DNA from: Candidatus Saccharimonadota bacterium | Lineage (GTDB): Bacteria; Patescibacteriota; Saccharimonadia; Saccharimonadales; UBA4665 | Length of the DNA: 32,000 nt | Assembly (NCBI GenBank): GCA_002952755.1 | Contig: CP025011.1 | Location: 600,001-632,000 of the forward strand | Direction of reading: 5' to 3' | Translations under genes and position numbers: made by a program | Shown: in pieces, positions 651 through 21,430 of the stretch | Position numbering within the stretch: the stretch's first letter is position 1 | Layout: each line of letters begins with the position of its first letter | The notes under the pieces: generated by a model | The model's database searches: none | Told to the model about the DNA's origin: nothing | The model's input: only the letters and a program-made list of their open reading frames with translations

Positions 651-785
651 GTGGGTGTGTCTGTATTTCGTGTGCCTAAAACCTTTATCAACTCTTTCCT
701 GCGTGCTGGAAAGCGCCTGTCGGCGCTATTTTTATGCTTTTTCTTTTTGCTAACTTCTACAATACCCACGCTCTCTGCGTATGCA
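651..785 (+). other. Sec-type signal peptide of the Rhs protein (aa 1-45)
   Basis: MGVSVFRVPKTFINSFLRAGKRLSALFLCFFFLLTSTIPTLSAYA|AE has a basic n-region, a hydrophobic core and an A-x-A-type cleavage site (AYA). Confidence 0.75.
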
Positions 786-3700: not shown

Positions 3701-6700
3701 GAGTGGCTGGGCGATGGGAATCGACGCTGACGGCAATCTGTCGTACGACCACCTCAAAGCAATGCAGAACAGCGTAGTACTCACAGATTCAACCGGCAGT
3801 ACTCACGAATACGTTTGGGATAACGATAAGCAGAACTACAAGCCGCCGGTTAACGAAGATGGCAATTTAGTGCGAAATGCTGACGGTACTTACACACTCC
3901 AGGACACCGATGGCCGTACGTATGTATTCAAGGCCGATGGTACGATTGATTCAGTTACTTCAGCTACTGACGACTTGAAGCCGACAGCGCTGAAGTATCA
4001 ATATGGCGGCACACCGTCGCACCTAATTGAAATAACGGACGGCGTAGATACCTCTCGCTGGGCTAGGGCCTACTACTACGGTGATACCGCCAATTGCCCC
4101 GCATCGGTAATTGGCTTTGACACTCCAGCAGCTGCGCTAAATAAACTCTGTGCCGTAACGACCAATGATGGCCGTACTACGTCGATCTACTACAAAGACG
4201 GCAATCTGGTGCGTATCCAAAAGCCGGGTAACGAAATTACCGATTACCAATATGATGCGCCTGGAAGAATCGTATCAATGCGAGATTCAGTTGCAAACGA
4301 CGCCATTGCGGCTGGAGTACGCACCGATGATGCTACCGTCCTGACGGCACTTTACTATGACGATCTAGGGCGGGTTATCAGTGTGACTGAGCCTGCTGCT
4401 ACGGCGGGTGCTGTCCGTTTGCAGCATAGCCTCGAATATCTGCCAGGCAACGGTACCTACTACGGAGCAACTCAGCAACGTACGGTAGGGGCAACAGAAC
4501 CAAACGGCTATGCGCACCGAGTCGAGTATGATAGCCTATACCGCACGATCGCCGATAAAGACATCGCTGGTCTCACCGATACTACTGCATGGGATCCTGT
4601 AAAAGATCTCATGCTCAGCACAACTGATGAGACTGGCCTTAAATCAACGACTATTTACGACGACGACGATCGTGCAATATCCCACTATGGTCCGGCACCA
4701 GCGGCCTGGTACGGAACAGACCGTAAACCGTCAAGCTCATATGTTAACCAAGTCCCGCATACCGACACGAACTATGATGAAAATATCCCAGGCATGGCAC
4801 TTGCATACTACGGATATGCCCCCACGAGCAAAGTATTAACTGGTGCTCCTAAGCTTCATACTACGAATATTCCTGGCGCAGCCACCGGCACATTTAGTAA
4901 CGATTTTGGTACAACTTCTCCGATAACTGGGGTAACGGACAATTGGGGCTTCCGGGCTACTGCTAAATTACGCCTGCCTCTGACTGGCAACTATACCTAC
5001 AGAATTGTTTCCGACGACGGCGTGCGACTCTATATTGACGATACGCTACAACTTGATGACTGGAACGCTGGCCCTACTCGTAGCCACCCCGCCGTTGGTT
5101 ACGTAAATACTGCCAATACTCTGCATCGTTTTAAGATTGAGTATTTCCACACCAACGACGCTACCAGTACAAATAACGCGAACATTACCCTGTATATCAC
5201 CCCTCCCGGTGGCGCAGAAACAGCCGTTAATCTTACCCAGTACTTCACACCTGATTACGATTTGGTAACTTCTACCAAGGAGTATGATTCGGCCATCGGG
5301 GATGCTACAGCCACAACCAACTACGGCAGCAGTCCGGAACTTGGCCTAGCGCAAAGCAAAACAGCCGATTCAGCAGGTCTCAACCTGACCTCCTCAAGTA
5401 CGTACGAAACTCAAGGTGCCACTGGCAGCTTACTTCGTCAGACTAGTTCTACTCTTCCTGGCGGTACTACCTCTACCTACAGCTACTATGGCGCAACCGA
5501 AACACGGCAGAACCCCTGCAACACTTCACAAACCTTCAGACAGGCGGGTATGCTAAAACTAAAGACGGAGGCGGACCCAGACGGCGCTGGTTTACAGGCG
5601 GCACGTACCACCGAAACCGTGTATGATGATGCCGGAAGAGTGATAGCAACTCGCTTAAACAGCGACCCTTGGACTTGTACGACCTACGATGCACGTGGCC
5701 GTGTAACAGAAATCGACATTCCAGCCTTTAATGGTGCAGCTGCAAGGACAGTACGAAACGATTATGCTGTCGGCGGAAATCCATTTGAAGCTACAACTTG
5801 GGATGGCAGCGGCTGGATAGTAACTTGGATAGATCTGTTAGGGCGTACTACCAAATACCGCGACGTCTTTGACGACGAGACCATAACCACCTATGATAGC
5901 CTTGGTCGTATGACCCAACAACAAAGCCCTGCGGGGACCCAAACGTATATCTACGACAACTATAATCGGCTCACACAGCAACAGCTCGATGGCACCACAT
6001 TGGCCAATGTCTACTATGATGCATATGGCAGGATAGATCACGTCAGCTATCCAAATGCCGGCAATCTTGGCCTCGCCAGTATAAGCAGGGATGCTAATGG
6101 CCGGACAAGCGGGCTGACATATAACACCAGTACCAATACGCCTGGTTCTAATCTAGTGCCAAATCCATCACTTGAGACAGTAACAGCCGGCCAGCCAGAT
6201 AACTGGAACCAGGATCACTGGGGTACCAATACGACGAACTTTGCCTATTCCACTGACGCTCACACCGGTACTCATAGCGGCAGGGTAGATATGACCAGTT
6301 ACACCGATGGGGACGCCAAATGGGACTTTACCCCGGTTAACATCAGCGGTGGTACCAATTACACCTTTAGTGATTACTATAAATCAAATGTTGCCACCAA
6401 TGTCTTCGTGCAATATACCTACGCCGACAATAGTACTTCATATCAATGGCTCGGTAATCCGGCGGCCTCTAGCGGTAGTTGGGCGCAGGCAACCTACAAT
6501 TTTACTGCACCGGCTACAGCCATTAAAGCATCGATATTCCATGCGATAAACGCGGTCGGCTGGATGCAGTTAGATGATATGGACATGCATTTAACGTACG
6601 GGTCGGCAGCGGTTTCTGACGCTGTCACCCGCAGCCAGTCCGGACAAATCCTGAACGACATCGTAACTGCTGGCTCCAACAACCTCTGGAGCACCTACCA

Positions 6701-8111
6701 GTACGACAAAGCCGACAGATTAACTAGCGCGGCGATCGGGCCGCACACATACAGTTATGGCTTCGGGACAGAAAATGCAGCTTGTGGCAGCGGAGCCGGA
6801 ACAAATGTGAACGCTGGTAAAAACGGCAACCGTACCACGCAGACCATAGATGGCACAACTACTTGGTATTGCTACGACAATGCCGACCGGCTAATTAGCA
6901 GCAGTGATCCCACAGCCGATTACAGTGAATACGACCCTCATGGCAACATGACTTACCTTGGTACCGGCACCATACCACTGCGTCTGTGTTATGACTCCAG
7001 TGACCGTAATTCTTGTCTGGTTAACTACAATAGTTCGGGAAATGGCTCGGCCACGTACTATAGTCGTGATGTCCAGGGCCGTATAACCTACCGTGAAAAT
7101 GACACCATAACGGCCCGCAATTGGAACGCGAATTCTCAGATCTGGTACGATTACACGGGTGCGGGCGACACCCCGGATTACGCCCGTGACCCCAATTGGA
7201 ACATTGTAGAGAAATACATCCAACTTCCTGGTGGTGCAGAGCTGACAATCCGTCCACTGCAACCCACCGCTGCAGCCAAAGCCGTCTACTCACTCCCCAA
7301 CATCCACGGGGATACCCTGCTCACTACTGACGGCACCGGCACCAATACCTCCACCGGCAATGGCCCAGCCAACAGTTTTACCTACGATCCCTTCGGTAAT
7401 ATATTACCTGGCAGTACTCAGCCCAGTAACATAGCTGGTACTGGTTCCTTTGGCTGGCTTGGTCAACATGAGAAGTTCACTGAAAGTACTCTAGCTCTCG
7501 CACCAATTCAAATGGGCTCAAGAGTATATCTGCCGACGCTTGGACGATTCACGAGTGTAGACCCGGTGCAAGGCGGCACCGAGAACAATTACGTCTACGT
7601 CCTCGACCCAATTAACGAGTTCGATCTTGATGGCAACTTTGGCTGGGGCAACCTCGCGAAGAGCGTGACAAGGGTCGCGACGATTGGCTCGTTTGTACCG
7701 GGGCCGATAGGTTTAGCTTGCACTGGTGTAGCTGTGGCGGGCAATCTGGCACAAGGACACTACAAGGAAGCCGGACTTGCTGCTGTCGGGGGCGCCTTCG
7801 GAGTGGCAAGACTTGCAACGAAGGCGACGGCGATTGCAAGAGTTGCAGCGGCAACTTCTAAAGATGGCAATGCAGGCTTCAATATGCTCAAGGCGCATAC
7901 TATTACTGCTCGACTTGCTGGAAAGATATATACTTCGGGATCTAATGGGCAGAAAGGCTTTCGCATCGCTACTAAGGCCAGTGGAGCAAAGATCGCAAAT
8001 TTCGAACAGTTTAGGCGTAGCATCACGTATGCTAGCAGAAATAGTACTTTAAGGCGATTCCCGAATAGAAGTCAAAATCTACACCTTAGAATAGGAGGAT
8101 GGTTATGGTAA
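651..8111 (+). CDS. Giant secreted Rhs/YD-repeat polymorphic toxin (WapA-style, Sec signal) with PA14 and CBM-like modules and a variable C-terminal toxin tip
   Basis: A 7461-nt ORF of 2486 aa with a GTG start after an SD. It has an N-terminal signal peptide and an S/T/P-rich linker. There are many YD repeats: YQYDAPGRIVSM, YYDDLGRVISV, VEYDSLYRTI, VYDDAGRVIAT, TYDARGRVTEI, TYDSLGRMTQQ, IYDNYNRLTQQ, YYDAYGRIDHV, YQYDKADRLTSA, CYDNADRLISS, EYDPHGNMTYL. The RHS core reads FTYDPFGN...GWLGQHEKF...GSRVYLPTLGRFTSVDPVQGGTENNYVYVLDPINEFDLDGN and is followed by a non-repeat tail. Confidence 0.95.
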   Translation: MGVSVFRVPKTFINSFLRAGKRLSALFLCFFFLLTSTIPTLSAYAAERLDSPPKAPIDQSITAAHSKTPPTGLNTPMKTDYAPALSTLQSKNKLAADYSPAVKGASSVLGMTNNTTPSNSSAAGLQSPVVPKTGKTEEIISKRTANSTTTKNEDGSYTVRKYETSKFYKRNNDWKTIDTKLVEDTDSGDAGNVLGDIFGKAESLFKSTNTYTVKQNDWLARFAPSGSKQAMVRIKKGNQEVGFSPQNAKDGVTPIVTTDDNGEQTVHYYDLWPGVNLEYIVKADELKENIVLKDKLATSDFAFNVTGATLKKPAAKTEVAGPIYDIDGALGNEFAVAPLAVVLNAFGVEDAGPALQHSYADGVFKISLTHDYVSNLPGKAFPLAIDPTYVHQNHFGTRAGGNYVSFKSDGYVCDATICNPYFGSVLDSNYIWRSWRSMLFSDYSEVKGHQLNNVTFHFTQRLGLSVSGPTDPHALYTWHGSCFNYNCRGVQGGSGVVGTSGDIDVTAIYQNRIAAGDYGAWLQLSGEEGTYTSYKNTDPDNSWVQFTFTDVLPAPNIVTPANGQVYIDPQVSFSATPGLTNPSSNAALQYNFCVSTGPACAGAVMVSSPQPSSQWTIPDGLLQDGTTYYVQAQTYDTNLQIYSPYGVAASFKIDSRTGKDSTQAYDTLGPVSVDLATGNVNTSEASHTSAALGGTMGISLDYNSPVKSRRGLVGKYWNVVANYAGGLPAGSPDLTRVDQTVDFDWQTGSPLAGTINNDWIYAAWDGFFVPQTTGTYYFGGNNDDMLSIKVNGQQLYSNGGCYSGVCYGSSINLAAGQAVPIHMEYEEVTGPAYAHLHVKTPDSVDHVMPVDWLQTGVRPVTQNTGLTGKYYRDPNGTHDFTDSNNTLLMQRTDPVVSFNWQSGPAVPGGPSDKFMARWTGYVTAPTSGSYDFGTVSDDGSRITIGTNNTQIVNKWNDDGGTPAWGTYSLVGGVPTPITVDYYENGGGAMMYLKMRGNGMAEQIVPTSWLSTGASVLPSGWAMGIDADGNLSYDHLKAMQNSVVLTDSTGSTHEYVWDNDKQNYKPPVNEDGNLVRNADGTYTLQDTDGRTYVFKADGTIDSVTSATDDLKPTALKYQYGGTPSHLIEITDGVDTSRWARAYYYGDTANCPASVIGFDTPAAALNKLCAVTTNDGRTTSIYYKDGNLVRIQKPGNEITDYQYDAPGRIVSMRDSVANDAIAAGVRTDDATVLTALYYDDLGRVISVTEPAATAGAVRLQHSLEYLPGNGTYYGATQQRTVGATEPNGYAHRVEYDSLYRTIADKDIAGLTDTTAWDPVKDLMLSTTDETGLKSTTIYDDDDRAISHYGPAPAAWYGTDRKPSSSYVNQVPHTDTNYDENIPGMALAYYGYAPTSKVLTGAPKLHTTNIPGAATGTFSNDFGTTSPITGVTDNWGFRATAKLRLPLTGNYTYRIVSDDGVRLYIDDTLQLDDWNAGPTRSHPAVGYVNTANTLHRFKIEYFHTNDATSTNNANITLYITPPGGAETAVNLTQYFTPDYDLVTSTKEYDSAIGDATATTNYGSSPELGLAQSKTADSAGLNLTSSSTYETQGATGSLLRQTSSTLPGGTTSTYSYYGATETRQNPCNTSQTFRQAGMLKLKTEADPDGAGLQAARTTETVYDDAGRVIATRLNSDPWTCTTYDARGRVTEIDIPAFNGAAARTVRNDYAVGGNPFEATTWDGSGWIVTWIDLLGRTTKYRDVFDDETITTYDSLGRMTQQQSPAGTQTYIYDNYNRLTQQQLDGTTLANVYYDAYGRIDHVSYPNAGNLGLASISRDANGRTSGLTYNTSTNTPGSNLVPNPSLETVTAGQPDNWNQDHWGTNTTNFAYSTDAHTGTHSGRVDMTSYTDGDAKWDFTPVNISGGTNYTFSDYYKSNVATNVFVQYTYADNSTSYQWLGNPAASSGSWAQATYNFTAPATAIKASIFHAINAVGWMQLDDMDMHLTYGSAAVSDAVTRSQSGQILNDIVTAGSNNLWSTYQYDKADRLTSAAIGPHTYSYGFGTENAACGSGAGTNVNAGKNGNRTTQTIDGTTTWYCYDNADRLISSSDPTADYSEYDPHGNMTYLGTGTIPLRLCYDSSDRNSCLVNYNSSGNGSATYYSRDVQGRITYRENDTITARNWNANSQIWYDYTGAGDTPDYARDPNWNIVEKYIQLPGGAELTIRPLQPTAAAKAVYSLPNIHGDTLLTTDGTGTNTSTGNGPANSFTYDPFGNILPGSTQPSNIAGTGSFGWLGQHEKFTESTLALAPIQMGSRVYLPTLGRFTSVDPVQGGTENNYVYVLDPINEFDLDGNFGWGNLAKSVTRVATIGSFVPGPIGLACTGVAVAGNLAQGHYKEAGLAAVGGAFGVARLATKATAIARVAAATSKDGNAGFNMLKAHTITARLAGKIYTSGSNGQKGFRIATKASGAKIANFEQFRRSITYASRNSTLRRFPNRSQNLHLRIGGWLW
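2781..3216 (+). other. PA14 domain 1
   Basis: GLVGKYWNV...TRVDQTVDFDWQTGSP...AAWDGFFVPQTTGTYYFGGNNDDMLSIKVNGQ...HMEYEE matches the PA14 pattern (GLxGxYW/Y, xVDFxW, rWxG, tGxYxF, DDxxxlxi). Confidence 0.8.
3243..3686 (+). other. PA14 domain 2
   Basis: GLTGKYYRDPNG...RTDPVVSFNWQSG...DKFMARWTGYVTAPTSGSYDFGTVSDDGSRITIG...VDYYENGGGAMMYL is a canonical PA14 motif series. Confidence 0.85.
4791..5262 (+). other. PA14 domain 3, inserted between blocks of YD repeats
   Basis: GMALAYYGY...DNWGFRATAKLRLPLTGNYTYRIVSDDGVRLYIDD...HRFKIEYFH. YD repeats lie on both sides (ending about 4700 and restarting about 5600). Confidence 0.75.
6150..6590 (+). other. CBM4/9-like carbohydrate-binding (jelly-roll) module inserted in the YD-repeat region
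   Basis: NLVPNPSLETVTAGQPDNWNQDHWGTNTTNFAYSTDAHTGTHSGRVDMTSYTDGDAKWDF...GGTNYTFSDYYKS...WAQATYNFTAPATA...GWMQLDDMDM. The NPSFE/xxxPxxW...GxxSxxV...Y.fS.w.k pattern is typical of CBM_4_9-type modules. This is assigned by motif only. Confidence 0.55.
7377..7637 (+). other. RHS repeat-associated core domain ending in a variant cleavage motif
   Basis: FTYDPFGNILPG...GWLGQHEKFTES...IQMGSRVYLPTLGRFTSVDPVQGGTENNYVYVLDPINEFDLDGN. The canonical cores end in DPxGL, whereas here the ending is D-L-D-G-N. Confidence 0.85.
7638..8108 (+). other. Variable C-terminal toxin tip (157 aa), family not recognised
   Basis: The position immediately after the RHS core is where polymorphic toxins carry their effector. 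The sequence is FGWGNLAKSVTRVATIGSFVPGPIGLACTGVAVAGNLAQGHYKEAGLAAVGGAFGVARLATKATAIARVAAATSKDGNAGFNMLKAHTITARLAGKIYTSGSNGQKGFRIATKASGAKIANFEQFRRSITYASRNSTLRRFPNRSQNLHLRIGGWLW. I could not find any known catalytic motif in it. Confidence 0.7.
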
Positions 8112-8473
8112 GTGTAAAACTGAATAATGTATTCATCGAGCACGGGGAAAAAGAACTCCTTTCAAAATCTTTGGGTCAAAAAAATACGCGTTGGTATGCT
8201 GCCGTTGCCTTGGATTTAACTGATCTATCTTCAAATCAGAAAATCGCTGAATGGTTCTACCTAATGTTATGTTCGCCTGAGTACGCTAAACAACCTTTTA
8301 AAAGGGGCCCGCATATCGAAACCGACCAACCCTATGTCGTGGTCCAAGACCAATTAGATATGGACAAGGCATTAAAGATCGCAGAAGACAAAGTGAAAAT
8401 TATTCAGGCCGATAACTGGGACGAGTTCTATACTAAAATGAGCGAAGAATTCCTATATGAAGATAAGGCCTAA
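8105..8473 (+). CDS. Putative cognate immunity protein (acidic, Imm8-like motif pattern)
   Basis: AGGAGG at 8093-8098 lies 6 nt before ATG 8105. The ATG at 8099 given in the ORF track has zero spacer. The start overlaps the Rhs stop (ATGGTAA, TAA at 8109-8111). The protein has 21 D/E against 15 K/R. The motifs WFYLMLCSPEY, PYVVVQD and NWDEFYTKMSEEFLYED resemble my recollection of Imm8 family proteins (FxVxVCTPxW ... hLIV ... TWxEVxxKLxxxxxWEFEDY). Confidence 0.7.
   Translation: MVSVKLNNVFIEHGEKELLSKSLGQKNTRWYAAVALDLTDLSSNQKIAEWFYLMLCSPEYAKQPFKRGPHIETDQPYVVVQDQLDMDKALKIAEDKVKIIQADNWDEFYTKMSEEFLYEDKA
8192..8360 (+). repeat. Direct repeat copy 1 (169 bp, inside the immunity gene)
   Basis: By base-by-base comparison it is identical to 9211-9379 (offset 1019 bp). 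Confidence 0.95.
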
Positions 8474-8481
8474 ACTGAAAG

Positions 8482-8907
8482 ATGGTAAGTAATTCAGTTG
8501 ACGAAGTCATTCATAAAATTAAGCACGTATACGATGCTGATATATCAATCCAAAATGAAGGAAATCAGTTCATCGACAAAAGGTTAACTATTAAAGACCT
8601 ACATGATAATGGAGTTACGATAGAGCTTAGTTTTAACAGTGAGGGTAAGGCTTCTATGCTTCAGCTACTGGGCTTTAAAGACGCAAATTTCAATATAGCG
8701 GAAGAATATACAAGCAATACAATATTGGAAGCAGTTTTTTTGTTAATGCAGGGTGATTTTAGTATAAAAAGAAGCGTATTTGGCCGCCCGTCACTGCTCG
8801 TTAAACAATTTGGAATAAAATTTAAAGCGACAGGCGGCACTAGAGTAGACGTTGGACCATACGCAAACTCTGCCAGCAAGGAAGAATCTAAATACGCTGA
8901 CCTTTAG
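8482..8907 (+). CDS. Hypothetical protein (141 aa) in the toxin/immunity cassette; possible second immunity or accessory protein
   Basis: The ORF starts 8 nt after the immunity-gene stop on the same strand. It is AT-rich (about 35% GC in 8521-8580 by hand count). I see no recognisable motifs, signal peptide or TM segment. Confidence 0.6.
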   Translation: MVSNSVDEVIHKIKHVYDADISIQNEGNQFIDKRLTIKDLHDNGVTIELSFNSEGKASMLQLLGFKDANFNIAEEYTSNTILEAVFLLMQGDFSIKRSVFGRPSLLVKQFGIKFKATGGTRVDVGPYANSASKEESKYADL

Positions 8908-8937
8908 GACGCCAGCTTAGGGGAGTAAAATAACGGC

Positions 8938-9405
8938 ATGCGCATAGAAGACTTCGAAGCAGCTATAGCTGCTACTGGACTAGTCGGCGCAGGTGCAGTT
9001 ACTAAACTTGCCGCGAAAGCTGTAGATCATGCTGCCTTAGCTGGGAAGAGTGCTAATATAATTGCACGTGCAGCGGAGGGCGCTGGTGCCAAATTGGCAA
9101 GAGCTCAATCAAACTTGCCACTAGTGGGGAGTGCGAGCAGAGTTTTTAGGAGATATATCAGCTACAATGAAAAAATATGTAGTTCAGCATACCAAATAAG
9201 TCTAGGAGGATGGTATGCTGCCGTTGCCTTGGATTTAACTGATCTATCTTCAAATCAGAAAATCGCTGAATGGTTCTACCTAATGTTATGTTCGCCTGAG
9301 TACGCTAAACAACCTTTTAAAAGGGGCCCGCATATCGAAACCGACCAACCCTATGTCGTGGTCCAAGACCAATTAGATAAACTACAACCTGACTACTTGT
9401 TCTAA
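8938..9405 (+). CDS. Orphan divergent toxin-tip fragment fused in frame to a truncated copy of the immunity gene (probable recombination remnant)
   Basis: It has its own ATG with GGGGAG 12 nt upstream. Residues 1-91 (..ATGLVGAGAVTKLAAKAV...RVFRRYISYNEK...ISLGGW) align loosely with the last ~110 aa of the Rhs tip (..AGLAAVGGAFGVARLATKAT...EQFRRSITYASR...LRIGGW). Residues 92-147 are identical to immunity residues W-Y-A-A-V...VVQDQLD. The last 8 aa (KLQPDYLF) are unrelated. Confidence 0.6.
   Translation: MRIEDFEAAIAATGLVGAGAVTKLAAKAVDHAALAGKSANIIARAAEGAGAKLARAQSNLPLVGSASRVFRRYISYNEKICSSAYQISLGGWYAAVALDLTDLSSNQKIAEWFYLMLCSPEYAKQPFKRGPHIETDQPYVVVQDQLDKLQPDYLF
9211..9379 (+). repeat. Direct repeat copy 2 (169 bp, inside the orphan fusion ORF)
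   Basis: It is identical to 8192-8360. The 12 nt preceding it (taggaggatggt, 9203-9214, overlapping the repeat start) also occur at 8092-8103. Confidence 0.95.
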
Positions 9406-11350: not shown

Positions 11351-11671
11351 TTATCGAGCGAGAATCTCGTAGACTTCCATGCTGCCCTGGCCGGAGGTTA
11401 CGCCCGGTGCGCTAGCTGCGAGTTTTTCCGCTGCTTCAAAACTGTCGGCTTCGACAATAGTAAAGCCACCCAGAAGGTTATCGGCTGTAGCTGTGCCGTC
11501 CGTAGTGACGCTCTTTCCGCCAAACTTAAAAGCTTCGCCGCTCTTGGCTGCTTCGCCAAGGGATCTCGTCCAGACATCCCAGGCAGATATTGTTTTTTGA
11601 ACTTCTTCTGGTGGCAATGTGGTCCAGTCGAAAGCTTCGCGAGATTTGTATATCAAAGCGTATTGTGTCAT
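11351..11671 (-). CDS. YciI/YCII-related (DGPF-like) small protein
   Basis: This is a 106-aa ORF with AAGGAG 8 nt upstream of its ATG. GGFTIVEADSFEAAEKLAASAPGV...MEVYEI parallels the C-terminal half of YciI-type proteins (..[22 protein letters not shown]..). Confidence 0.6.
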   Translation of the reverse strand: MTQYALIYKSREAFDWTTLPPEEVQKTISAWDVWTRSLGEAAKSGEAFKFGGKSVTTDGTATADNLLGGFTIVEADSFEAAEKLAASAPGVTSGQGSMEVYEILAR

Positions 11672-11775
11672 GGAGAGAACTCCTTTTAGTAATGAATAAT
11701 ACTGAGTATAGAAGGATTACTTGGAAAAGACAAGCGAATTGTTATCAATCCAGAAAGTATAGTAAACTATATATT

Positions 11776-12252
11776 ATGAAATCAACTGGAATTACTGGCA
11801 ATTGCCCTATAAATTTTACGCTAGAAACGCTTGGCAATCGCTGGGCATTATTGATTGTCCGCGATATAGCTTTTTATGGTAAGCGGACATATGGAGAGTT
11901 TTTGCGTTCTGAGGAAGGCATTACTACTAGTATGCTAGCGGATCGATTGCTGGTGTTGGAAAAACAAGGCATGATCATTAAAAAGCGTTCAAATACCGAT
12001 CGGCGTAAAGAGATTTACACATTAGATCGACGTGGCTATACACTAGTTCCATTGTTACTTGAGCTTTCACGCTGGGGTATGTATGAGAACGGTTTAGCTG
12101 ATCTCAATCCAGCTTGGGTAGAACAGCTGCAAACTAACCATGACGCGCTGGTGCAGCTTATTTACGAAACGCTCGACGAAGGTGGTTCAGTGTTTAGGGG
12201 AGAGAGAAGCGTGGTTGAGAAGCTTGGCATCCAAATATATTCTAACAAGTAG
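11776..12252 (+). CDS. HxlR (DUF24) family transcriptional regulator, paralog 1, with a C-terminal extension
   Basis: MKSTGITGNCPINFTLETLGNRWALLIVRDIAFYGKRTYGEFLRS..ITTSMLADRLLVLEKQGMI..R..YTL is the classic HxlR winged-helix signature with a conserved N-terminal Cys. I chose the ATG at 11776 because the ORF-track start at 11590 overlaps the divergent gene. Confidence 0.85.
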   Translation: MKSTGITGNCPINFTLETLGNRWALLIVRDIAFYGKRTYGEFLRSEEGITTSMLADRLLVLEKQGMIIKKRSNTDRRKEIYTLDRRGYTLVPLLLELSRWGMYENGLADLNPAWVEQLQTNHDALVQLIYETLDEGGSVFRGERSVVEKLGIQIYSNK

Positions 12253-13619: not shown

Positions 13620-14072
13620 ATGAAACGAAACGATAGAAAATCTGATTGCGCTATTAATTACGCTTTGGATATGATCGGCGACCCTTGGTCGATGCTTATT
13701 GTGCGTGACATTGTATACTTTGGCAAACGAACCTTTGGCGAGTTTTTAGCCTCTCAGGAACGGATCGCTACCAGTGCTTTATCCAGACGTCTGATCGATC
13801 TAGAGTATAAGGGCATCTTAGACAAAACAACCTCGCTCGAAGATAAGCGCAAAGAAACCTATACACTCACCAACAAAGGCCTGGATCTAATCCCCACCAT
13901 GCTTGAGCTAGCTGCCTGGGGAGCTCGGTATGATGCGAATACTGGTGCTTCGTCGGCATGGATAACCGCCGTCGAGCAGGATAAACCGGCTATGATAGAC
14001 CGCATCCGCCAGGCAGTTCGAACGGGGAATGCTGTATTTTCTGAGGGCAAAGAAGCAACCTGGTCGCTTTAG
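13620..14072 (+). CDS. HxlR (DUF24) family transcriptional regulator, paralog 2
   Basis: SDCAINYALDMIGDPWSMLIVRDIVYFGKRTFGEFLAS..IATSALSRRLIDLEYKGIL...ETYTLT. It is divergent from the VOC/hydrolase operon. Confidence 0.85.
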   Translation: MKRNDRKSDCAINYALDMIGDPWSMLIVRDIVYFGKRTFGEFLASQERIATSALSRRLIDLEYKGILDKTTSLEDKRKETYTLTNKGLDLIPTMLELAAWGARYDANTGASSAWITAVEQDKPAMIDRIRQAVRTGNAVFSEGKEATWSL

Positions 14073-14131: not shown

Positions 14132-14956
14132 TCACGATAAGTCTGGTATGTCAGCGGCATACGGATCACGTGCTCTCACTAGTCCACCAAAGAACTCGCC
14201 TGGGTCATAATTTCCCTCATTCCAGTTTGCTATATATAGTGGTTCATTGATTCCGAGCAGCTTTGCGGCCTCAGTGGGCAGCTTCTTAAATGACTCTTTA
14301 ATAACAAATCGAGCCAATCCTAGCTCACGAGCTTGAGGTTGTCTAATGGCCCCAGCATCCTCATAGAATTGTATAGCAGCAGGTTCATCCGGAAGGGGGT
14401 TTGTGGTCGTTCGCGCTTTCGCCCGCGGAAGATCATCGAGAGATGCAATTGAAGCGAGCCTGGCAAGATGACCGCGCCATACTTTGTCCATCTGTTTTTG
14501 ATATCGCAAGTACTCGGGAGTACCCACATCATAGGTGAGCGGTAATTCAACGCTCATCATATGCGGTATGCCGCGGTCCAGCTCATCGTTTTCGTATACG
14601 GCATGCCGTATACCTAGCTTAGCCATCACGCGCGTCATTCGAGGGTCGACAGTAGGGTTGACATATGCAGTGTTTGGCCCCGGGAAGCGGGCATTGTGGA
14701 ACGATAGGATCAGGTCAAATTCTGAAAACATTCCTCGGAGCTCAGCTGATCGTCGTCGTTCATAGAGCGGCGAGTCGGGGTTTGGTTGAGCGCTAAAAGC
14801 AAGCTCTACGTCAATATAGCGCTCACCTAAGTCTACCGCCCTCGGGTTTCCTAGTATGGGTACGACTCCCGGGATAGGGTCAGCCTCTAATGATGCATAG
14901 AGGTCTATGGGGTATGGCTCGTTGCCGTGGACGCTGCACAATGCACCAATAAGCAT
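14132..14956 (-). CDS. Succinylglutamate desuccinylase/aspartoacylase (AstE/AspA) family zinc deacylase-like protein
   Basis: It has an N-terminal SVHGNE (the GxHGNE zinc motif) and a later DLILSFHNARFPGP, which is comparable to the DLHNTTxNMG region of aspartoacylases. Confidence 0.55.
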   Translation of the reverse strand: MLIGALCSVHGNEPYPIDLYASLEADPIPGVVPILGNPRAVDLGERYIDVELAFSAQPNPDSPLYERRRSAELRGMFSEFDLILSFHNARFPGPNTAYVNPTVDPRMTRVMAKLGIRHAVYENDELDRGIPHMMSVELPLTYDVGTPEYLRYQKQMDKVWRGHLARLASIASLDDLPRAKARTTTNPLPDEPAAIQFYEDAGAIRQPQARELGLARFVIKESFKKLPTEAAKLLGINEPLYIANWNEGNYDPGEFFGGLVRARDPYAADIPDLS

Positions 14957-15257: not shown

Positions 15258-15309
15258 CCCTATCCCTTTTTCGTTTGCTTAGCTATACTATTTAGCACTA
15301 GGGGGTAAC

Positions 15310-17364
15310 ATGAAAAGAATCCGTTATTGGCTCCTCGCAATAGCTATGGCCGTACTGCCGTTTATATCAGTAGGACGAGCGTTAGCAGTAAGTTGTGGGG
15401 CTGGGAAAAGCATGAATGTTGTCGCACACGAAGACGACGATCTGCTCTTTCTAAATCCAGCTATTTTGCACGACATCCAAAATAACAGGTGCGTGCAAAC
15501 AGTATTTATGACAGCCGGTGATGCCGGTAGCGGGTCTAGTTATTGGGGCGGACGAGAGTCGGGAATGAAGGCAGCGTATGCGCAGATGGCCGGCGTTAGC
15601 AATGTATGGGATGATACGACACCAACTATTTTGGGCCACACCGCGCACTTGTCTACCTTGCATAATGCGCCGCAGGTATCGTTGCTGTTTCTGCGACTAC
15701 CAGACGGCGGTGAACATGATGGTATTGAGGGCTTTGCTAGTGATAACTATGAAACGATGCGTAAGCTTTGGCAGGGTACCATTGGTACGATACATGCTGT
15801 AGACGGGTCGGCTAGTTACGCACGGGAAGAACTTACCGATACATTAGCCACGCAGATGGCGCTCTATGAGCCAGGTACTATTCGTTCATTGGACTATACA
15901 GGTACCTATAGCGACTTGAGCGGAGGTGATGACGACCATTGGGATCACCACTCGAGCGCCTATTTTACACAGGTCGCCCAAGCTAAACATACCGTAGTCT
16001 CACACATGCTAACGGGGTATATGGGGTATCCAGTTGATAGCCAGAGTACGAACATTTCAGGCACAGATCTGACGAACAAGCAGAACGCGTTTTACACATA
16101 CAATGCCTATGATGGCGGTGACTGTACGAGCAGCAGCAATTGCACCGCCGTGCTGGCAGATTATTTACAAAAACAATATGCAGTGGGAACACAGTCGGGC
16201 AGTAATCGTTGGTCATATACCACTATGGAGGGTGACCCCGGTTCTTTAAGCGGCCGGAATGCTGATGTTGGCAATCAGCCGTCAACGGTTGTTTTTGGCA
16301 CCAATGTATATAGTTTCTATTACGACGCTACAGCAGGCGATTTACGCTACGCCAAATCATCTACCAGTACTACAACGCCTAGCTGGACATTCGGCATACT
16401 CGACGGTGCGGGTGGCTCAAGCGGCCGCTTGAATACCGACCTTGGGTTAACCCCTAATTCGATCGTGTTCAATGGCGTGTTGCATGTGTTCTACTACGAT
16501 CCGACTAGTGGTAACTTGCGCCATGGTTGGACATCTGACGGGGTTAATTGGTCATTTAACAACCATGATGGGGATACGGGCTCTATCGGCGGTCTGAACG
16601 CCAATCTGGGTAAAACTCCAATTGCGACAGTATACGGATCGTCTCTCCAGCTATTTTACTACGATGCGAGCAATGGTAATCTACGCCACTCATGGTCATC
16701 TGACGGTAGTGCATGGTCATTTGAGACCCTGGATGGGGACAGTGGTGCAGTGTCTGGGTATAACGCCAACGTTGGTGGGGACCCAAGCGTTACTGTTTAC
16801 GGATCGACCTTGCAGCTATTCTATTACGATTTGACACAGGGGGACCTGCGCCATGCATGGTCGGATGCGAGCGGTTGGCACTTCGAGACGCTCGATGGAA
16901 GTGGCGGTTCGAGTGGCAGGGTATCGGCGGATGTAGGCATTACTTCTACAGTAGCTGTGCAAGGTTCATATCTGAATGTTTTTTACTATGATTCATCAAA
17001 TGGAAACCTAAGGCATATGTGGACTAGCCCAACTGCCGGTTGGCAGGCCGAGAATCTTATCGGTGATGCTTCCTCAGTAGTTCGCTACAATGGTTCTATC
17101 GGCGCTATGCCGGTGGCTATAGCCAACGGCAGCGCCATGGAATTGTTCACCTATGACGCTTCGCATCAGGCTCTTATTCACCTGTGGGATGCGGGCAGCG
17201 GGTGGCAGGAAGAGTCAGTAGATGGTTTTGGCGCCGATAGCGCAGGCACGGTCGGTAGCAACGTAGGGCTCGATCCTAGTTTAGTTATTTACGGCTCGGC
17301 CTTACATGTCATTTACTACGATGCAGGTCAGGGTAATCTGCGTTATGCGCAACTCAGTATCTAG
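15310..17364 (+). CDS. Secreted PIG-L/LmbE-family deacetylase fused to a seven-blade lectin-like beta-propeller
   Basis: AGGGGG lies 4 nt before the ATG. The signal peptide is MKRIRYWLLAIAMAVLPFISVGRALA|V. PIG-L motifs are VVAHEDDDLLF (AHxDD) and DDDHWDHH (HxDH). The C-terminal half consists of seven ~54-aa tandem repeats. Confidence 0.85.
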   Translation: MKRIRYWLLAIAMAVLPFISVGRALAVSCGAGKSMNVVAHEDDDLLFLNPAILHDIQNNRCVQTVFMTAGDAGSGSSYWGGRESGMKAAYAQMAGVSNVWDDTTPTILGHTAHLSTLHNAPQVSLLFLRLPDGGEHDGIEGFASDNYETMRKLWQGTIGTIHAVDGSASYAREELTDTLATQMALYEPGTIRSLDYTGTYSDLSGGDDDHWDHHSSAYFTQVAQAKHTVVSHMLTGYMGYPVDSQSTNISGTDLTNKQNAFYTYNAYDGGDCTSSSNCTAVLADYLQKQYAVGTQSGSNRWSYTTMEGDPGSLSGRNADVGNQPSTVVFGTNVYSFYYDATAGDLRYAKSSTSTTTPSWTFGILDGAGGSSGRLNTDLGLTPNSIVFNGVLHVFYYDPTSGNLRHGWTSDGVNWSFNNHDGDTGSIGGLNANLGKTPIATVYGSSLQLFYYDASNGNLRHSWSSDGSAWSFETLDGDSGAVSGYNANVGGDPSVTVYGSTLQLFYYDLTQGDLRHAWSDASGWHFETLDGSGGSSGRVSADVGITSTVAVQGSYLNVFYYDSSNGNLRHMWTSPTAGWQAENLIGDASSVVRYNGSIGAMPVAIANGSAMELFTYDASHQALIHLWDAGSGWQEESVDGFGADSAGTVGSNVGLDPSLVIYGSALHVIYYDAGQGNLRYAQLSI
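16210..17361 (+). repeat. Seven tandem ~54-aa protein repeats (beta-propeller blades)
   Basis: Each unit reads W-x-F/A-E-x-L-D-G-x-x-G-x-x-G-x-x-x-A-x-V-G-x-x-P-S-x-x-V-Y-G-x-x-L-x-h-F-Y-Y-D-x-x-x-G-N/D-L-R-H/Y-x-W. Examples are WSFETLDGDSGAVSGYNANVGGDPSVTVYGSTLQLFYYDLTQGDLRHAWSDASG and WHFETLDGSGGSSGRVSADVGITSTVAVQGSYLNVFYYDSSNGNLRHMWTSPTAG. Confidence 0.85.
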
Positions 17365-17444: not shown

Positions 17445-18326
17445 TTACCCGCGAGTACTTTCTTCGCACTGTCGGGTATCAGCTGCTCTGGAAGTGAGCG
17501 ACGCCAAAGACAGTACCAGTAATATACTGGCCGCTACAAAAGCCATTGTGATGCGGTGCGTCAATAATGCATTTCCGCTCAGAGAAGGAGCATTCGCGCC
17601 TGAGAACACAGCTATAAGAATAGCGAGCCCGAGCGTTGCGCCTAGCTGCATTGCAACATACGTAATGCCTGACGCTGCTCCAACGTCCTTCGCGTCAACG
17701 CCTGCTAAGCCCTCTGTTGTGATCGGACCCTGAGACAAGCCTAAACCTACTCCTAGTAGAAGAAGTGGTAGTGCGAAATGCCATAGGTACGAACTTTGCG
17801 GAGTAATCCGGCTTAGGAGTAGCATGCCCACAATCGTAATAGTAAAAACTGTCGAGATGAGACGTGAGTTGCCGATGCGACGCACTAGTCGCGGTATATA
17901 CAGCGCCGACCAGAAGTTAGCCAAAGTCATCGGCAAAAATGCGAAGCCGGCCAAGATCCGACTGAAGCCTTTGACTATGTGTAAGTACTGACTAGCAAAG
18001 AACCAGAAGCCAATGATAACTCCTATATAAAGCGTACGGCTTACATAGGAAGCGGTACGCTTGGGGCTTGCAAATAGCCGAAGGGGTAAGATAGGCTGTT
18101 TGGCTTGGCGCTCGCCGAGAACGAACAATCCCAATAATCCTAGGCCAGCCACTAACAGAGCTATAGTGGCAGCATTACCCCAACCCGTATCAGCAGCGTG
18201 GACTATACCATAAATAACCGAAAACATTCCCAGAATTGACACTGTGGCACCAGTAACGTCCGTAATGCTGCTGTGCTGCCTGTTCTCAATGCCATTATCG
18301 GGAAAATAGATCTGATGAGACAGTAC
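17445..18326 (-). pseudogene. 5'-truncated MFS (DHA2/EmrB-type) transporter paralog; only the C-terminal half is present
   Basis: The ORF-track product (GTG at 18242) corresponds to the region after TM6 of the adjacent intact MFS. ITDVTGATVSILGMFSVIYGIVHAADTGW matches LDFIGIVLMTAGIFGIAWGFIRSSTLGW. The homologous frame stays open upstream to 18326 and then hits a stop at 18327-18329. No N-terminal six-TM half exists. Confidence 0.55.
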
Positions 18327-18471: not shown

Positions 18472-19848
18472 CTACAATGGCTTATGAATGTGTTTTGGTA
18501 AGAGCAGACCGGCTAATGCGCCAACTAGCGACAATCCCGCGCTGGCACCGATTGCGGCCGCGAAGCCATTACTAAATAATTGCGGCGATCCATATGAACC
18601 TACTCGGGCAAATATTGCAACTGCTACCGCAACACCAAATACTCCTCCGAGTTGCCGAAGCATGTTATACACTCCTGATGCTTGCCCAACTTGGAGTGGT
18701 TCCACGGCACTCACTACAGCATGCTGTGAAGCTGGTATAGCCATGGATGCGCCTGCTCCAGCAATAATCAGCGGTATAATAAGCATGGAATAACTAGGGT
18801 GAGATGTAGCTAAGAGAGCAATCGAGCTCATACCAATTGTCTGCATAGTGAGTCCAGCCACCAAAAGGAGCCGTTCTCCGACACGATTGACGAGCGACCC
18901 GGTGATGGGCCCGATAAAAAACAGCGTTGCTGTCCATGGGAGTAAACGGAGCCCCGTGCCAAGTGGATCATAGTGTTCTGCCGTCTGCAAAAATTGCGCT
19001 ATAAAGAAAAGCGCACCAAACATTGAACTATACAGAAAGAAGTTTGCGGTATTGCCGGCTGAAAAGGCTCGCAATCGGAATAACCGCATCTGCAGCATTG
19101 GCCGCGCCACATGCCGTTCCCATAATACAAATACCATAAGAGTTAGTAGTCCAGCAATCAGTGCGCCAGTAATTTCAACATTGCCCCATCCTAAGGTACT
19201 ACTACGAATAAACCCCCAAGCAATGCCAAAGATACCGGCAGTCATGAGTACTATACCAATGAAGTCGAGGTGAAGTTCGGTTTTTTCACTCTCATGAAGC
19301 TTCGTGAGGATAAGTGGGATTATGATAAGCCCAACAGGTACATTAATCCAAAAGATCCATTGCCAAGATATACCCTGTACGATTGCTCCACCTACGACTG
19401 GTCCGCTTAAGATCGCAAGACCGGTAATGCTTGCAAAAAGCCCAAGCGCCTTGGCGCGCTGTTCCTTAGGGAAGGCTGAGCTCAATAATGCCAACGCAAG
19501 GGGCATGACAAAAGCCGCGCCAACTCCTTGGACAACACGTGCTGCAATGAGTGCACTAGTGTCCGAGGCTAGAGCACAAGCCATAGAGGCAAAGGTAAAT
19601 AGAGCGAGGCCGGAAGCAAACATACGTCGCCTTCCAAACCGTTCACCCAATGCAGAGCCAAGCATGATTAATACTGCGAAACTCAAAGTATATGCCGTAA
19701 TCATCCAGCCTAGTGCTGCTACCGACGCTCCTAATTTAAGCCGGATTGCACTAAGAGCTGTCGTTACTACGAGCGCATCCAGGGCTACCATAAAAGAGGC
19801 TACGCCCGTAAGGAATAACGTCCAGTTTTTGAGTCGTTTTTCGTCCAT
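18472..19848 (-). CDS. MFS transporter, DHA2 (14-TM drug:H+ antiporter) type
   Basis: 458 aa and highly hydrophobic. It has MFS motif A-like GSALGERFGRRRM and motif C-like GLFASITGLAILSGPVVGG. Confidence 0.85.
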   Translation of the reverse strand: MDEKRLKNWTLFLTGVASFMVALDALVVTTALSAIRLKLGASVAALGWMITAYTLSFAVLIMLGSALGERFGRRRMFASGLALFTFASMACALASDTSALIAARVVQGVGAAFVMPLALALLSSAFPKEQRAKALGLFASITGLAILSGPVVGGAIVQGISWQWIFWINVPVGLIIIPLILTKLHESEKTELHLDFIGIVLMTAGIFGIAWGFIRSSTLGWGNVEITGALIAGLLTLMVFVLWERHVARPMLQMRLFRLRAFSAGNTANFFLYSSMFGALFFIAQFLQTAEHYDPLGTGLRLLPWTATLFFIGPITGSLVNRVGERLLLVAGLTMQTIGMSSIALLATSHPSYSMLIIPLIIAGAGASMAIPASQHAVVSAVEPLQVGQASGVYNMLRQLGGVFGVAVAVAIFARVGSYGSPQLFSNGFAAAIGASAGLSLVGALAGLLLPKHIHKPL

Positions 19849-20992: not shown

Positions 20993-21430
20993 ATGAACTT
21001 ACATGAACTACGATCCGATTGTCCAATAAACTATGTCAGTGAGCTCCTCGGAGATAAGTGGAGTTTTCTTATCATGCGTGACATCATTTTCCTGCATAAG
21101 AGTTCCTATGGTAGCTTTCTTAGTTCAAAAGAAAAGATCGCTCCTAGCATTTTGGCTCGCCGCCTTGCTTCACTCCAAGACAGCGGTTTCTTAAGAAAGC
21201 AACGAGATCCCGAGAATAAAGCGAAATACATATATACCCCGACAGATCAAACAATCGGCCTCATCCCTCTTCTCGTCGACATGATGTTGTGGAGTGAGCA
21301 ATATGCTCCTTCTCTACCTATATCTGAAGAGCGCCAAGCAGACTTACAAAAAATCCATTACAATAAAGAGGCCTTTATCCACGAAACACGAGAACGTATC
21401 CTAGCTCATGTAACATCAGACAAAATATAA
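20993..21430 (+). CDS. HxlR (DUF24) family transcriptional regulator, paralog 3
   Basis: SDCPINYVSELLGDKWSFLIMRDIIF...YGSFLSS..IAPSILARRLASLQDSGFL...YIYTPT. Confidence 0.85.
   Translation: MNLHELRSDCPINYVSELLGDKWSFLIMRDIIFLHKSSYGSFLSSKEKIAPSILARRLASLQDSGFLRKQRDPENKAKYIYTPTDQTIGLIPLLVDMMLWSEQYAPSLPISEERQADLQKIHYNKEAFIHETRERILAHVTSDKI

Follow-up and report, generated by a model that had tools for sequence, protein, structure and literature searches.

The 32,000-nt window analysed here (positions 600,001–632,000 of the forward strand of contig CP025011.1, GenBank assembly GCA_002952755.1, from a Candidatus Saccharimonadota bacterium) carries near its middle a gene whose product joins a Sec-type signal peptide, a divergent PIG-L/LmbE deacetylase domain (hereafter, N-domain) and a C-terminal seven-bladed beta-propeller. 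All positions are those of this window unless another locus is named. An earlier note, made from the sequence alone, had described the product as a secreted deacetylase fused to a lectin-like propeller, and the open reading frame (ORF) on which it was based is real, intact and exactly placed. The gene and the parts of its product are as follows (AF2, AlphaFold2).

15310–17364, +: complete coding sequence with an ATG start, 684 aa plus stop (ORF listing)
15301–15305, +: Shine-Dalgarno-like GGGGG, 4 nt before the ATG (read from the sequence)
15310–15387, +: Sec-type signal peptide, aa 1–26 (MKRIRYWLLAIAMAVLPFISVGRALA), predicted cleavage before VSC (sequence features)
15388–16197, +: divergent PIG-L/LmbE (CE14-type) deacetylase domain, aa 27–296 (Pfam, AF2, Foldseek)
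15424–15441, +: motif 1, AHEDDD, aa 39–44, counterpart of the family AHPDD motif (sequence)
15934–15951, +: motif 2, DHWDHH, aa 209–214, counterpart of the HxDH motif (sequence)
16204–17361, +: seven-bladed beta-propeller, aa 299–684 (sequence repeats, AF2, Foldseek)
from 16204, +: repeat 1, aa 299–356
from 16378, +: repeat 2, aa 357–411
from 16543, +: repeat 3, aa 412–466
from 16708, +: repeat 4, aa 467–520
from 16870, +: repeat 5, aa 521–575
17035–17199, +: repeat 6, aa 576–630, a degenerate blade
from 17200, +: repeat 7, aa 631–684

Public gene callers start this gene at an internal methionine (Met13, position 15346), which gives a protein of 672 aa (P0001). The start at 15310 is the better one, because a Shine-Dalgarno (SD) sequence precedes it and ten full-length homologues align with its basic-then-hydrophobic N-terminus; the ATG of Met13 has no SD or other ribosome-binding site. 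Read from the sequence, the leader consists of an n-region (MKRIR), a 17-residue hydrophobic core (YWLLAIAMAVLPFISVG) and RALA followed by VSC, with an AxA site, and in the AF2 model aa 2–18 form a helix of low confidence. Leaders are kept in 10 of 10 full-length homologues in the alignment, and a hydrophobic leader lies ahead of the motif in at least 102 of 134 sequences of the wider N-domain clade described below. Together with the SD sequence before 15310, this speaks against a mis-called start, which the earlier note had named as a possible flaw in its signal peptide. An annotation that begins at Met13 deletes the charged n-region of the signal peptide, so that localisation predictors would miss the export signal.

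Cys29 was considered as a lipoprotein lipobox cysteine and rejected, as Arg23 precedes it and the homologues have P or D at −1/−2. Four cysteines (Cys29, Cys61, Cys272 and Cys278) are invariant in the full-length group, which would fit disulfide bonds in an extracytoplasmic protein. Its upstream neighbour is transcribed divergently and its downstream neighbour convergently, so the gene is monocistronic by geometry; a promoter and terminator scan gave results no better than shuffled sequence, and the whole protein had no match in NCBIfam.

The PIG-L/LmbE domain and its secreted relatives

The Pfam PIG-L model (PF02585) matches residues 35–219 (E=7e-8, 33.4 bits compared to a gathering cut-off of 28.2), and both motifs on which the earlier note had relied (AHEDDD and HWDHH) are present. 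All of 56 clade members share H40, D42, D43, D209 and H213, at least 90% of them also have D212, and H210 is invariant in the 11 full-length proteins. By analogy with MshB, we take the AHEDDD counterpart to be the metal-ligand/general-base motif and the second histidine of HxDH to be a metal ligand; because these MshB-type residues are conserved, the domain would be expected to be an active hydrolase.

An AF2 model of the N-domain was built with a 56-sequence alignment and reached a predicted local distance difference test (pLDDT) score of 91.3 and a predicted template modelling (TM) score (pTM) of 0.88. The 42 best PDB matches of this model in Foldseek (each at E<1e-3) all had the LmbE fold and were, with few exceptions, deacetylases, including BC1534/BshB, the Pyrococcus diacetylchitobiose deacetylases, MshB, LnmX, the teicoplanin/A40926 enzymes Orf2*/Dbv21, and TT1542. 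Similarity to these solved members was limited to TM 0.44–0.62 and 11–16% identity, and hidden Markov model searches of PDB sequences with the N-domain returned nothing significant (the match to LnmX was non-significant). Based on these values, the modelled domain represents a divergent branch of the PIG-L/LmbE superfamily.

With known PIG-L/LmbE proteins (PF02585, CE14; MshB, BshB/BC1534, LnmX and Orf2*/Dbv21) the N-domain shares the fold, the Pfam model and the AH(P)DD and HxDH motifs, and the chemistry expected by analogy would be metal-dependent hydrolysis of the N-acetyl group of an N-acetylglucosamine (GlcNAc) conjugate. Unlike the solved members, the window protein is exported, has four invariant cysteines, carries E for P in motif 1 and bears extracellular binding modules. 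To our knowledge, every biochemically studied PIG-L/LmbE enzyme is intracellular and acts on small GlcNAc conjugates (mycothiol, bacillithiol, glycosylphosphatidylinositol precursors, chitobiose and glycopeptide antibiotics).

Relatives of the N-domain are encoded in at least 507 stretches of species-representative genomes; clade relatives scanned with Pfam score 43–58 bits against PF02585. Their main sources are Actinomycetota (Arthrobacter, Paenarthrobacter, Cellulomonas, Curtobacterium, Actinoplanes and Micromonospora), Ktedonobacteria, Saccharibacteria and other phyla of the candidate phyla radiation. Most sequences without such a leader either have a short fungal signal peptide or probably have a mis-called start, and the clade, as judged from its sequences, is predominantly exported. 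The modules C-terminal to the catalytic domain vary and include DUF7402/F5_F8_type_C (discoidin), Ricin-B lectin, PA14, PKD, TIG and PASTA in addition to the propeller. No characterised member of this secreted clade was found in the literature.

The clade reaches into fungi, with homologues 41–46% identical to the N-domain in many Aspergillus species (P0170, P0171, P0174, P0182, P0191, P0195, P0204, P0206, P0207, P0211–P0213, P0226 and P0234). Those that we retrieved and inspected (e.g., P0212 of A. fumigatus) begin with a signal peptide and end in a Ser/Thr-rich tail. Automatic annotation labels the homologues GlcNAc-phosphatidylinositol deacetylase, but they are clearly not that enzyme of the endoplasmic reticulum. 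Their presence could be the product of transfer between bacteria and fungi.

In 20 of 80 genome loci, the N-domain homologue has glycosyltransferase genes of family GT4 within 8 kb, and often more than one. At one such locus, from Ktedonobacteria bacterium brp13 (AP024096.1; L019, 610–16664), a 311-aa clade member is the last gene of an operon with four GT4 genes and a gene for a DUF2206 membrane protein, and is followed downstream by genes for a GH5 protein, an AMP-binding/polysaccharide flippase fusion and an 849-aa thaumatin-domain protein. This homologue has neither leader nor propeller and is therefore probably a cytoplasmic pathway enzyme.

The full combination of PIG-L domain and propeller was found in 11 clusters (P0001–P0011; 662–733 aa, leaders in all), and P0002–P0011 repeat the architecture of the window protein at 40–59% identity and 98–100% coverage. 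Since none of the 80 best N-domain loci (of the at least 507 stretches) carries the propeller, the fusion is rare, yet its sequences indicate conservation across considerable divergence. The earlier note knew of no characterised example of this fusion, and our search of the literature found none.

The propeller, its structural neighbours and its family

The seven repeats measure 54–58 aa each and 386 aa in total, in agreement with the seven tandem ~54-aa repeats (384 aa) read in the earlier note, and their mean pairwise identity of 40% (range 25–57%) is far beyond chance. The consensus proposed there also held, and reads WxFExLDGDxGSx7VGxxPxxxVYGxxLQxFYYDxxxGNLRHAW in a family alignment of 55 blades. 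Repeat 6 has ENLIGD instead of ExLDGD and ALIHLW instead of NLRHxW, and this degeneration recurs at the same position in P0002–P0005 and is readable too in a fusion to a CHAP domain (P0063). The full-length AF2 model is confident (pLDDT 90.9; propeller blocks mostly 95–98) and contains 28 strands over aa 301–683, i.e., seven four-stranded blades, which is the fold that the earlier note had proposed to look for with AlphaFold. Because the blades are 40% identical and the same aromatic and charged residues stand in each of them, the sequence points to a binding site repeated from blade to blade and not to one active site.

When the propeller was compared to solved structures with Foldseek, the lowest E-value belonged to a putative neuraminidase (4irt, TM 0.61), and the best superposition among the top matches was with CV39L, a PLL-like seven-bladed lectin of Chromobacterium violaceum (6gxs_D; E=1.9e-11, TM 0.73 normalised by target, root-mean-square deviation [rmsd] 4.4 Å over 382 columns, 16% identity). 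Next came the fucose lectins RSL (as monomeric constructs) and AAL (1iub), at E ~1e-10 with TM 0.55–0.62, and then sialidases and GH32/GH43 propellers with poorer geometry. At the sequence level, DUF346 was detected at E≤1e-4 in 8 of 72 representative relatives of the propeller, and four relatives scored 25.7–38.8 bits compared to a cut-off of 22; UniLectin equates DUF346 with PLL-like lectins (PropLec7A) (PMC7778903). Searches of PDB sequences with a DUF346-positive relative gave nothing meaningful, and the window protein had no match to the Pfam Fungal_lectin model. The relationship of the propeller to DUF346/PLL is thus transitive at best: as modelled, its nearest known family is PLL-like, not AAL/RSL, and its sequence does not qualify it as a formal member. 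The description in the earlier note (lectin-like, reminiscent of AAL/RSL) therefore stands as a structural likeness, seen in the matches to CV39L, RSL and AAL, and falls short in blade number, which is seven and not six, and in sequence-level membership.

With the PLL family (Photorhabdus PLL/PHL and Chromobacterium CV39L; DUF346) the propeller shares seven four-stranded blades of ~50 aa and a Trp-rich repeated motif, whereas it has no DUF346 match and no PDB sequence match of its own and reaches only the 16% identity of the structural alignment. In Gram-negative insect pathogens, PLLs occur as free-standing lectins for fucose and O-methylated sugars; the window propeller, in contrast, is the C-terminal module of secreted enzymes. 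The blade core resembles that of AAL/RSL/BambL (a hydrophobic strand with Tyr, a turn, x-W, then G-W), but propellers of the AAL/RSL type have six blades, formed by a single chain in AAL and by a trimer of two-blade units in RSL. Sialidase/BNR propellers also have six blades and carry BNR/Asp-box motifs, whereas the window propeller has seven blades and no BNR or sialidase match in Pfam, and superposes on them at TM 0.36–0.61 with high rmsd.

A phmmer search run exhaustively over 1.84 billion cluster representatives recovered 2371 members of the propeller family at E≤1e-3, of which 870 reach E≤1e-10 and 182 reach E≤1e-30. In 72 representative propeller proteins scanned against Pfam, the propeller is nearly always the C-terminal module. 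Its partners are CHAP (16 of 72), Peptidase_M23 (4 of 72), Amidase_2 (3 of 72), Cutinase (2 of 72), and Subtilase (S8), Matrixin (M10) and Peptidase_C70 (1 of 72 each); other proteins have Ig-like or unrecognised N-terminal domains, and fusions to NlpC/P60 also exist. The sources that carry a name are Candidatus Saccharimonadales and Streptomyces. About one third of the sampled proteins are peptidoglycan hydrolases. The window propeller aligns end-to-end over ~380 aa with those of CHAP and M23 fusions at 47–52% identity, about as closely as with the propellers of other PIG-L fusions (46–59%). Because of this end-to-end alignment and the shared degenerate sixth blade, the seven-blade unit is seen to move as a cassette. 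The repeat also occurs in giant proteins of 1677–3684 aa (P0263, P0308, P0315, P0316, P0347, P0348 and P0357) with up to 16 matched stretches, and some family members therefore hold several propellers or long blade arrays.

The propeller was also sought as a binding domain of phage endolysins, with no match in 50,697 phage records, and the only plasmid match was a 1600-aa GH18 protein on a mobilizable plasmid of Tolypothrix sp. PCC 7601 (NZ_CP064889.1; L087, 550–5352), with 22.6% identity over 82% of the propeller length (E=1e-6); Pfam recognises no more than Kelch- and DUF6242-like fragments in this stretch. No characterised member of the propeller family was found in the literature, and a beta-propeller described in PMC13622651 was rejected as a relative, being an unrelated WD40 sensor.

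Because it is found again and again beside CHAP, M23 and amidase domains, in episymbiotic Saccharibacteria among others, the propeller family is a candidate new cell-wall-targeting module that is absent from Pfam. If so, it would help to explain wall attack or remodelling by these organisms and would be useful for engineered targeted lysins. A functional analogy exists to LysM, SH3b, CW_binding/choline-binding repeats and PASTA, since the propeller is likewise repetitive, multivalent and C-terminal to CHAP, M23, Amidase_2 and NlpC/P60; unlike in these modules, the fold is that of an unrelated propeller and wall binding is suggested by domain co-occurrence alone.

Proposed function of the fusion protein

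Our tentative explanation, to which we give a likelihood a little short of even, is that the protein is an extracellular Zn-dependent de-N-acetylase held on GlcNAc-containing wall glycan, likeliest peptidoglycan, by a multivalent glycan-binding propeller. After Sec export, cleavage of the signal peptide would yield a soluble two-module enzyme. The propeller (aa 299–684) would serve as a lectin-like anchor that binds repetitive wall glycan via up to seven equivalent inter-blade sites; the sugar sites of PLL lectins lie between adjacent blades (PMC12203525). Such binding would raise the local concentration of the PIG-L domain (aa 27–296; metal probably Zn) at the wall polymer, where it would remove acetyl groups from GlcNAc-type residues. 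Cell-wall targeting is the most economical reading because about one third of the sampled propeller proteins are peptidoglycan hydrolases, and among wall polymers the peptidoglycan of the producer or of neighbouring cells would be the likeliest target (possibly chitin), because of these hydrolase partners and because N-domain relatives are fused to PASTA. The analysis establishes the architecture, the export signals, the folds, the conservation of the motifs and the frequencies of the fusion partners; that the propeller binds glycan, which polymer it binds and that the reaction is de-N-acetylation are what we infer from these patterns. The extracellular glycan suggested as a target in the earlier note (peptidoglycan or chitin) gains independent support from the fusion of the propeller cassette to CHAP, M23, Amidase_2 and NlpC/P60 wall hydrolases.

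De-N-acetylation of peptidoglycan and chitin governs lysozyme resistance, immune evasion and chitosan formation. The job proposed here, extracellular removal of the N-acetyl group from GlcNAc of peptidoglycan, chitin or exopolysaccharide, is shared with CE4 enzymes (PgdA, PgaB, IcaB and chitin deacetylases), which are also often fused to carbohydrate-binding modules (CBMs); unlike the window protein, these have the unrelated NodB fold and family, and a Pfam scan found no CE4 signature in the window protein. If the explanation is true, a secreted clade with swappable CBMs would extend the PIG-L/LmbE superfamily to extracellular polymers and provide a second, non-CE4 route to de-N-acetylated peptidoglycan or chitin. 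A broader joint reading, which we regard as doubtful, takes the propeller as a new widespread wall-glycan-binding class (Saccharibacteria, Actinomycetota and Chloroflexota) and the N-domain as the first extracellular CE14/PIG-L enzyme, a non-CE4 de-N-acetylase of peptidoglycan (or chitin), in a clade that crossed into Aspergillus. With respect to the literature searched, the extracellular PIG-L clade, the sizeable unannotated propeller family linked to wall hydrolases and the union of both in one protein are new, whereas the PIG-L/CE14 fold, the lectin-like seven-bladed propeller and the design of an enzyme with a CBM are already familiar.

Several results weigh against a wall de-N-acetylase anchored by a glycan-binding propeller. 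The propeller of the window protein had no Pfam match, including DUF346, even at E≤10; as a single sequence and with two family profiles it matched no PDB chain (AAL/RSL at E≤1), and a 55-sequence single-blade profile found neither AAL/RSL nor any other solved lectin in PDB at E≤10. In our alignment of the propeller with RSL, the Arg/Glu/Trp fucose triad of RSL/AAL presumably does not fall on equivalent conserved positions. About two thirds of the sampled propeller proteins have no recognised wall-hydrolase domain, some of them having proteases, cutinase or unknown domains instead, and the propeller may therefore be a general surface or glycan anchor. Known GlcNAc deacetylases of peptidoglycan are CE4 enzymes, not PIG-L, and the fungal homologues of the N-domain and its likeness to diacetylchitobiose deacetylase point to chitin equally. 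Genomic context was unhelpful, as no conserved synteny was found around two other full-length fusion genes (P0005 and P0003). The possibility raised in the earlier note, that the repeats fall into a known non-lectin propeller family, is not borne out: they have no Pfam or PDB sequence match, and propeller lectins are among their best structural neighbours.

Chitin is the substrate in the main rival explanation, in which the protein would be secreted to deacetylate chitin or chito-oligosaccharides of exogenous or fungal origin, as a means of nutrition or antagonism, and the propeller would bind chitin or a fungal glycan. Archaeal diacetylchitobiose deacetylases among the closest solved folds, the secreted Aspergillus homologues with 42–45% identity (e.g., A. 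fumigatus P0212), the CBM-like modules of the clade that are typical of secreted polysaccharide-active enzymes (discoidin/DUF7402, Ricin-B and PA14) and the distant propeller relative within the Tolypothrix plasmid GH18 protein all agree with it. We nevertheless consider it unlikely, given that the recognised propeller partners are overwhelmingly peptidoglycan hydrolases (CHAP, M23 and Amidase_2) and not chitinases, that the Tolypothrix match is only 22.6% identical and that the nearby part of the window has no genes for chitinases or chitin utilisation. Alternatively, the enzyme could mature a secreted or capsular polysaccharide of its own cell, by analogy with PgaB/IcaB or Agd3, such that a GlcNAc/GalNAc polymer is deacetylated after export while bound by the propeller. 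The GT4 genes at a quarter of the N-domain loci (20/80) and the brp13 operon, which the homologue closes and which GH5 and flippase genes follow, speak for this. That homologue, however, has no leader or propeller, the window gene and the full-length homologues have no glycosyltransferase neighbours or conserved synteny, and the propeller is found in 0 of 80 genome loci, all of which makes maturation of the cell's own polysaccharide quite unlikely.

Two further explanations concern the propeller itself. It could bind protein and not glycan, as an interaction module or scaffold by which assorted secreted enzymes are fixed to a surface protein. Propellers are often platforms for protein interaction, the partners of this one include proteases, cutinase and phosphoesterase besides wall hydrolases, and no sequence-level link to any solved lectin was found. 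Several of the best structural neighbours are lectins, though, relatives of the propeller reach the DUF346/PLL-like model, and each blade carries a conserved aromatic and charged motif typical of multivalent lectins, so that we rate the scaffold as very unlikely. The idea that the propeller is a glycoside hydrolase (sialidase/neuraminidase-like or of GH type), which would make the protein bifunctional, derives from the lowest Foldseek E-value (4irt) and from the many sialidases and GH32/GH43 propellers that follow in the list. Those enzymes have 5–6 blades and superpose at TM 0.3–0.6 and rmsd 6–15 Å, compared to TM 0.73 and 4.4 Å for CV39L; there are no BNR/sialidase or GH matches in Pfam, and catalytic propellers have non-equivalent blades around one active site, in contrast to the 40% identical blades seen here. 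A catalytic propeller is accordingly extremely improbable, and a multivalent glycan-binding propeller that holds the de-N-acetylase on wall glycan is still the explanation that we tentatively prefer.

Neighbouring genes and other features of the window

The divergent upstream gene (14132–14956, −; 274 aa) had been called aspartoacylase-like in the earlier note. This label is only marginal, because its scores lie below the cut-offs of both Pfam (AstE_AspA_cat, E=0.024, 14.6 bits compared to 25) and NCBIfam (aspartoacylase/AstE, 23 bits compared to 180), with a match confined to the N-terminal ~90 aa. An HGNE motif is found at aa 10–13, so that the ORF starts almost at the motif. A search of a 5.8-billion-protein index returned no homologue of this protein other than itself, and the gene is absent from all fetched homologue loci. 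A functional link to the fusion gene was therefore rejected for this orphan, which may be a truncated or fast-evolving remnant.

On the other side of the fusion gene, a 265-aa ORF (17445–18242, −) covers no more than the C-terminal half of MFS_1 (model positions 134–346) and lies directly downstream of a complete 458-aa transporter of the MFS/TRI12-like type (18472–19848, −). The shorter ORF is probably a truncated duplicate or a split gene.

The source genome has about 48–50% GC and a gene complement like that of soil bacteria. Near the start of the window, a 2486-aa ORF (651–8111, +) combines three PA14 domains with a GLEYA domain and RHS repeats and may thus encode a secreted adhesin or a polymorphic-toxin-like protein. 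It is followed by a 155-aa ORF without a Pfam match (8938–9405, +) in a low-GC stretch (GC 0.40 at 8001–9000, compared to ~0.50 elsewhere in the window), and the two ORFs could be a toxin/immunity-type pair or an acquired island. Finally, three HxlR-family regulators are encoded within 10 kb (11590–12252, 13620–14072, and 11644–12081 of locus L001, which is about 20993–21430 of the window). They are interleaved with glyoxalase, alpha/beta-hydrolase, metallo-beta-lactamase-fold and MFS genes, an arrangement that suggests a cluster of small detoxification or efflux units.

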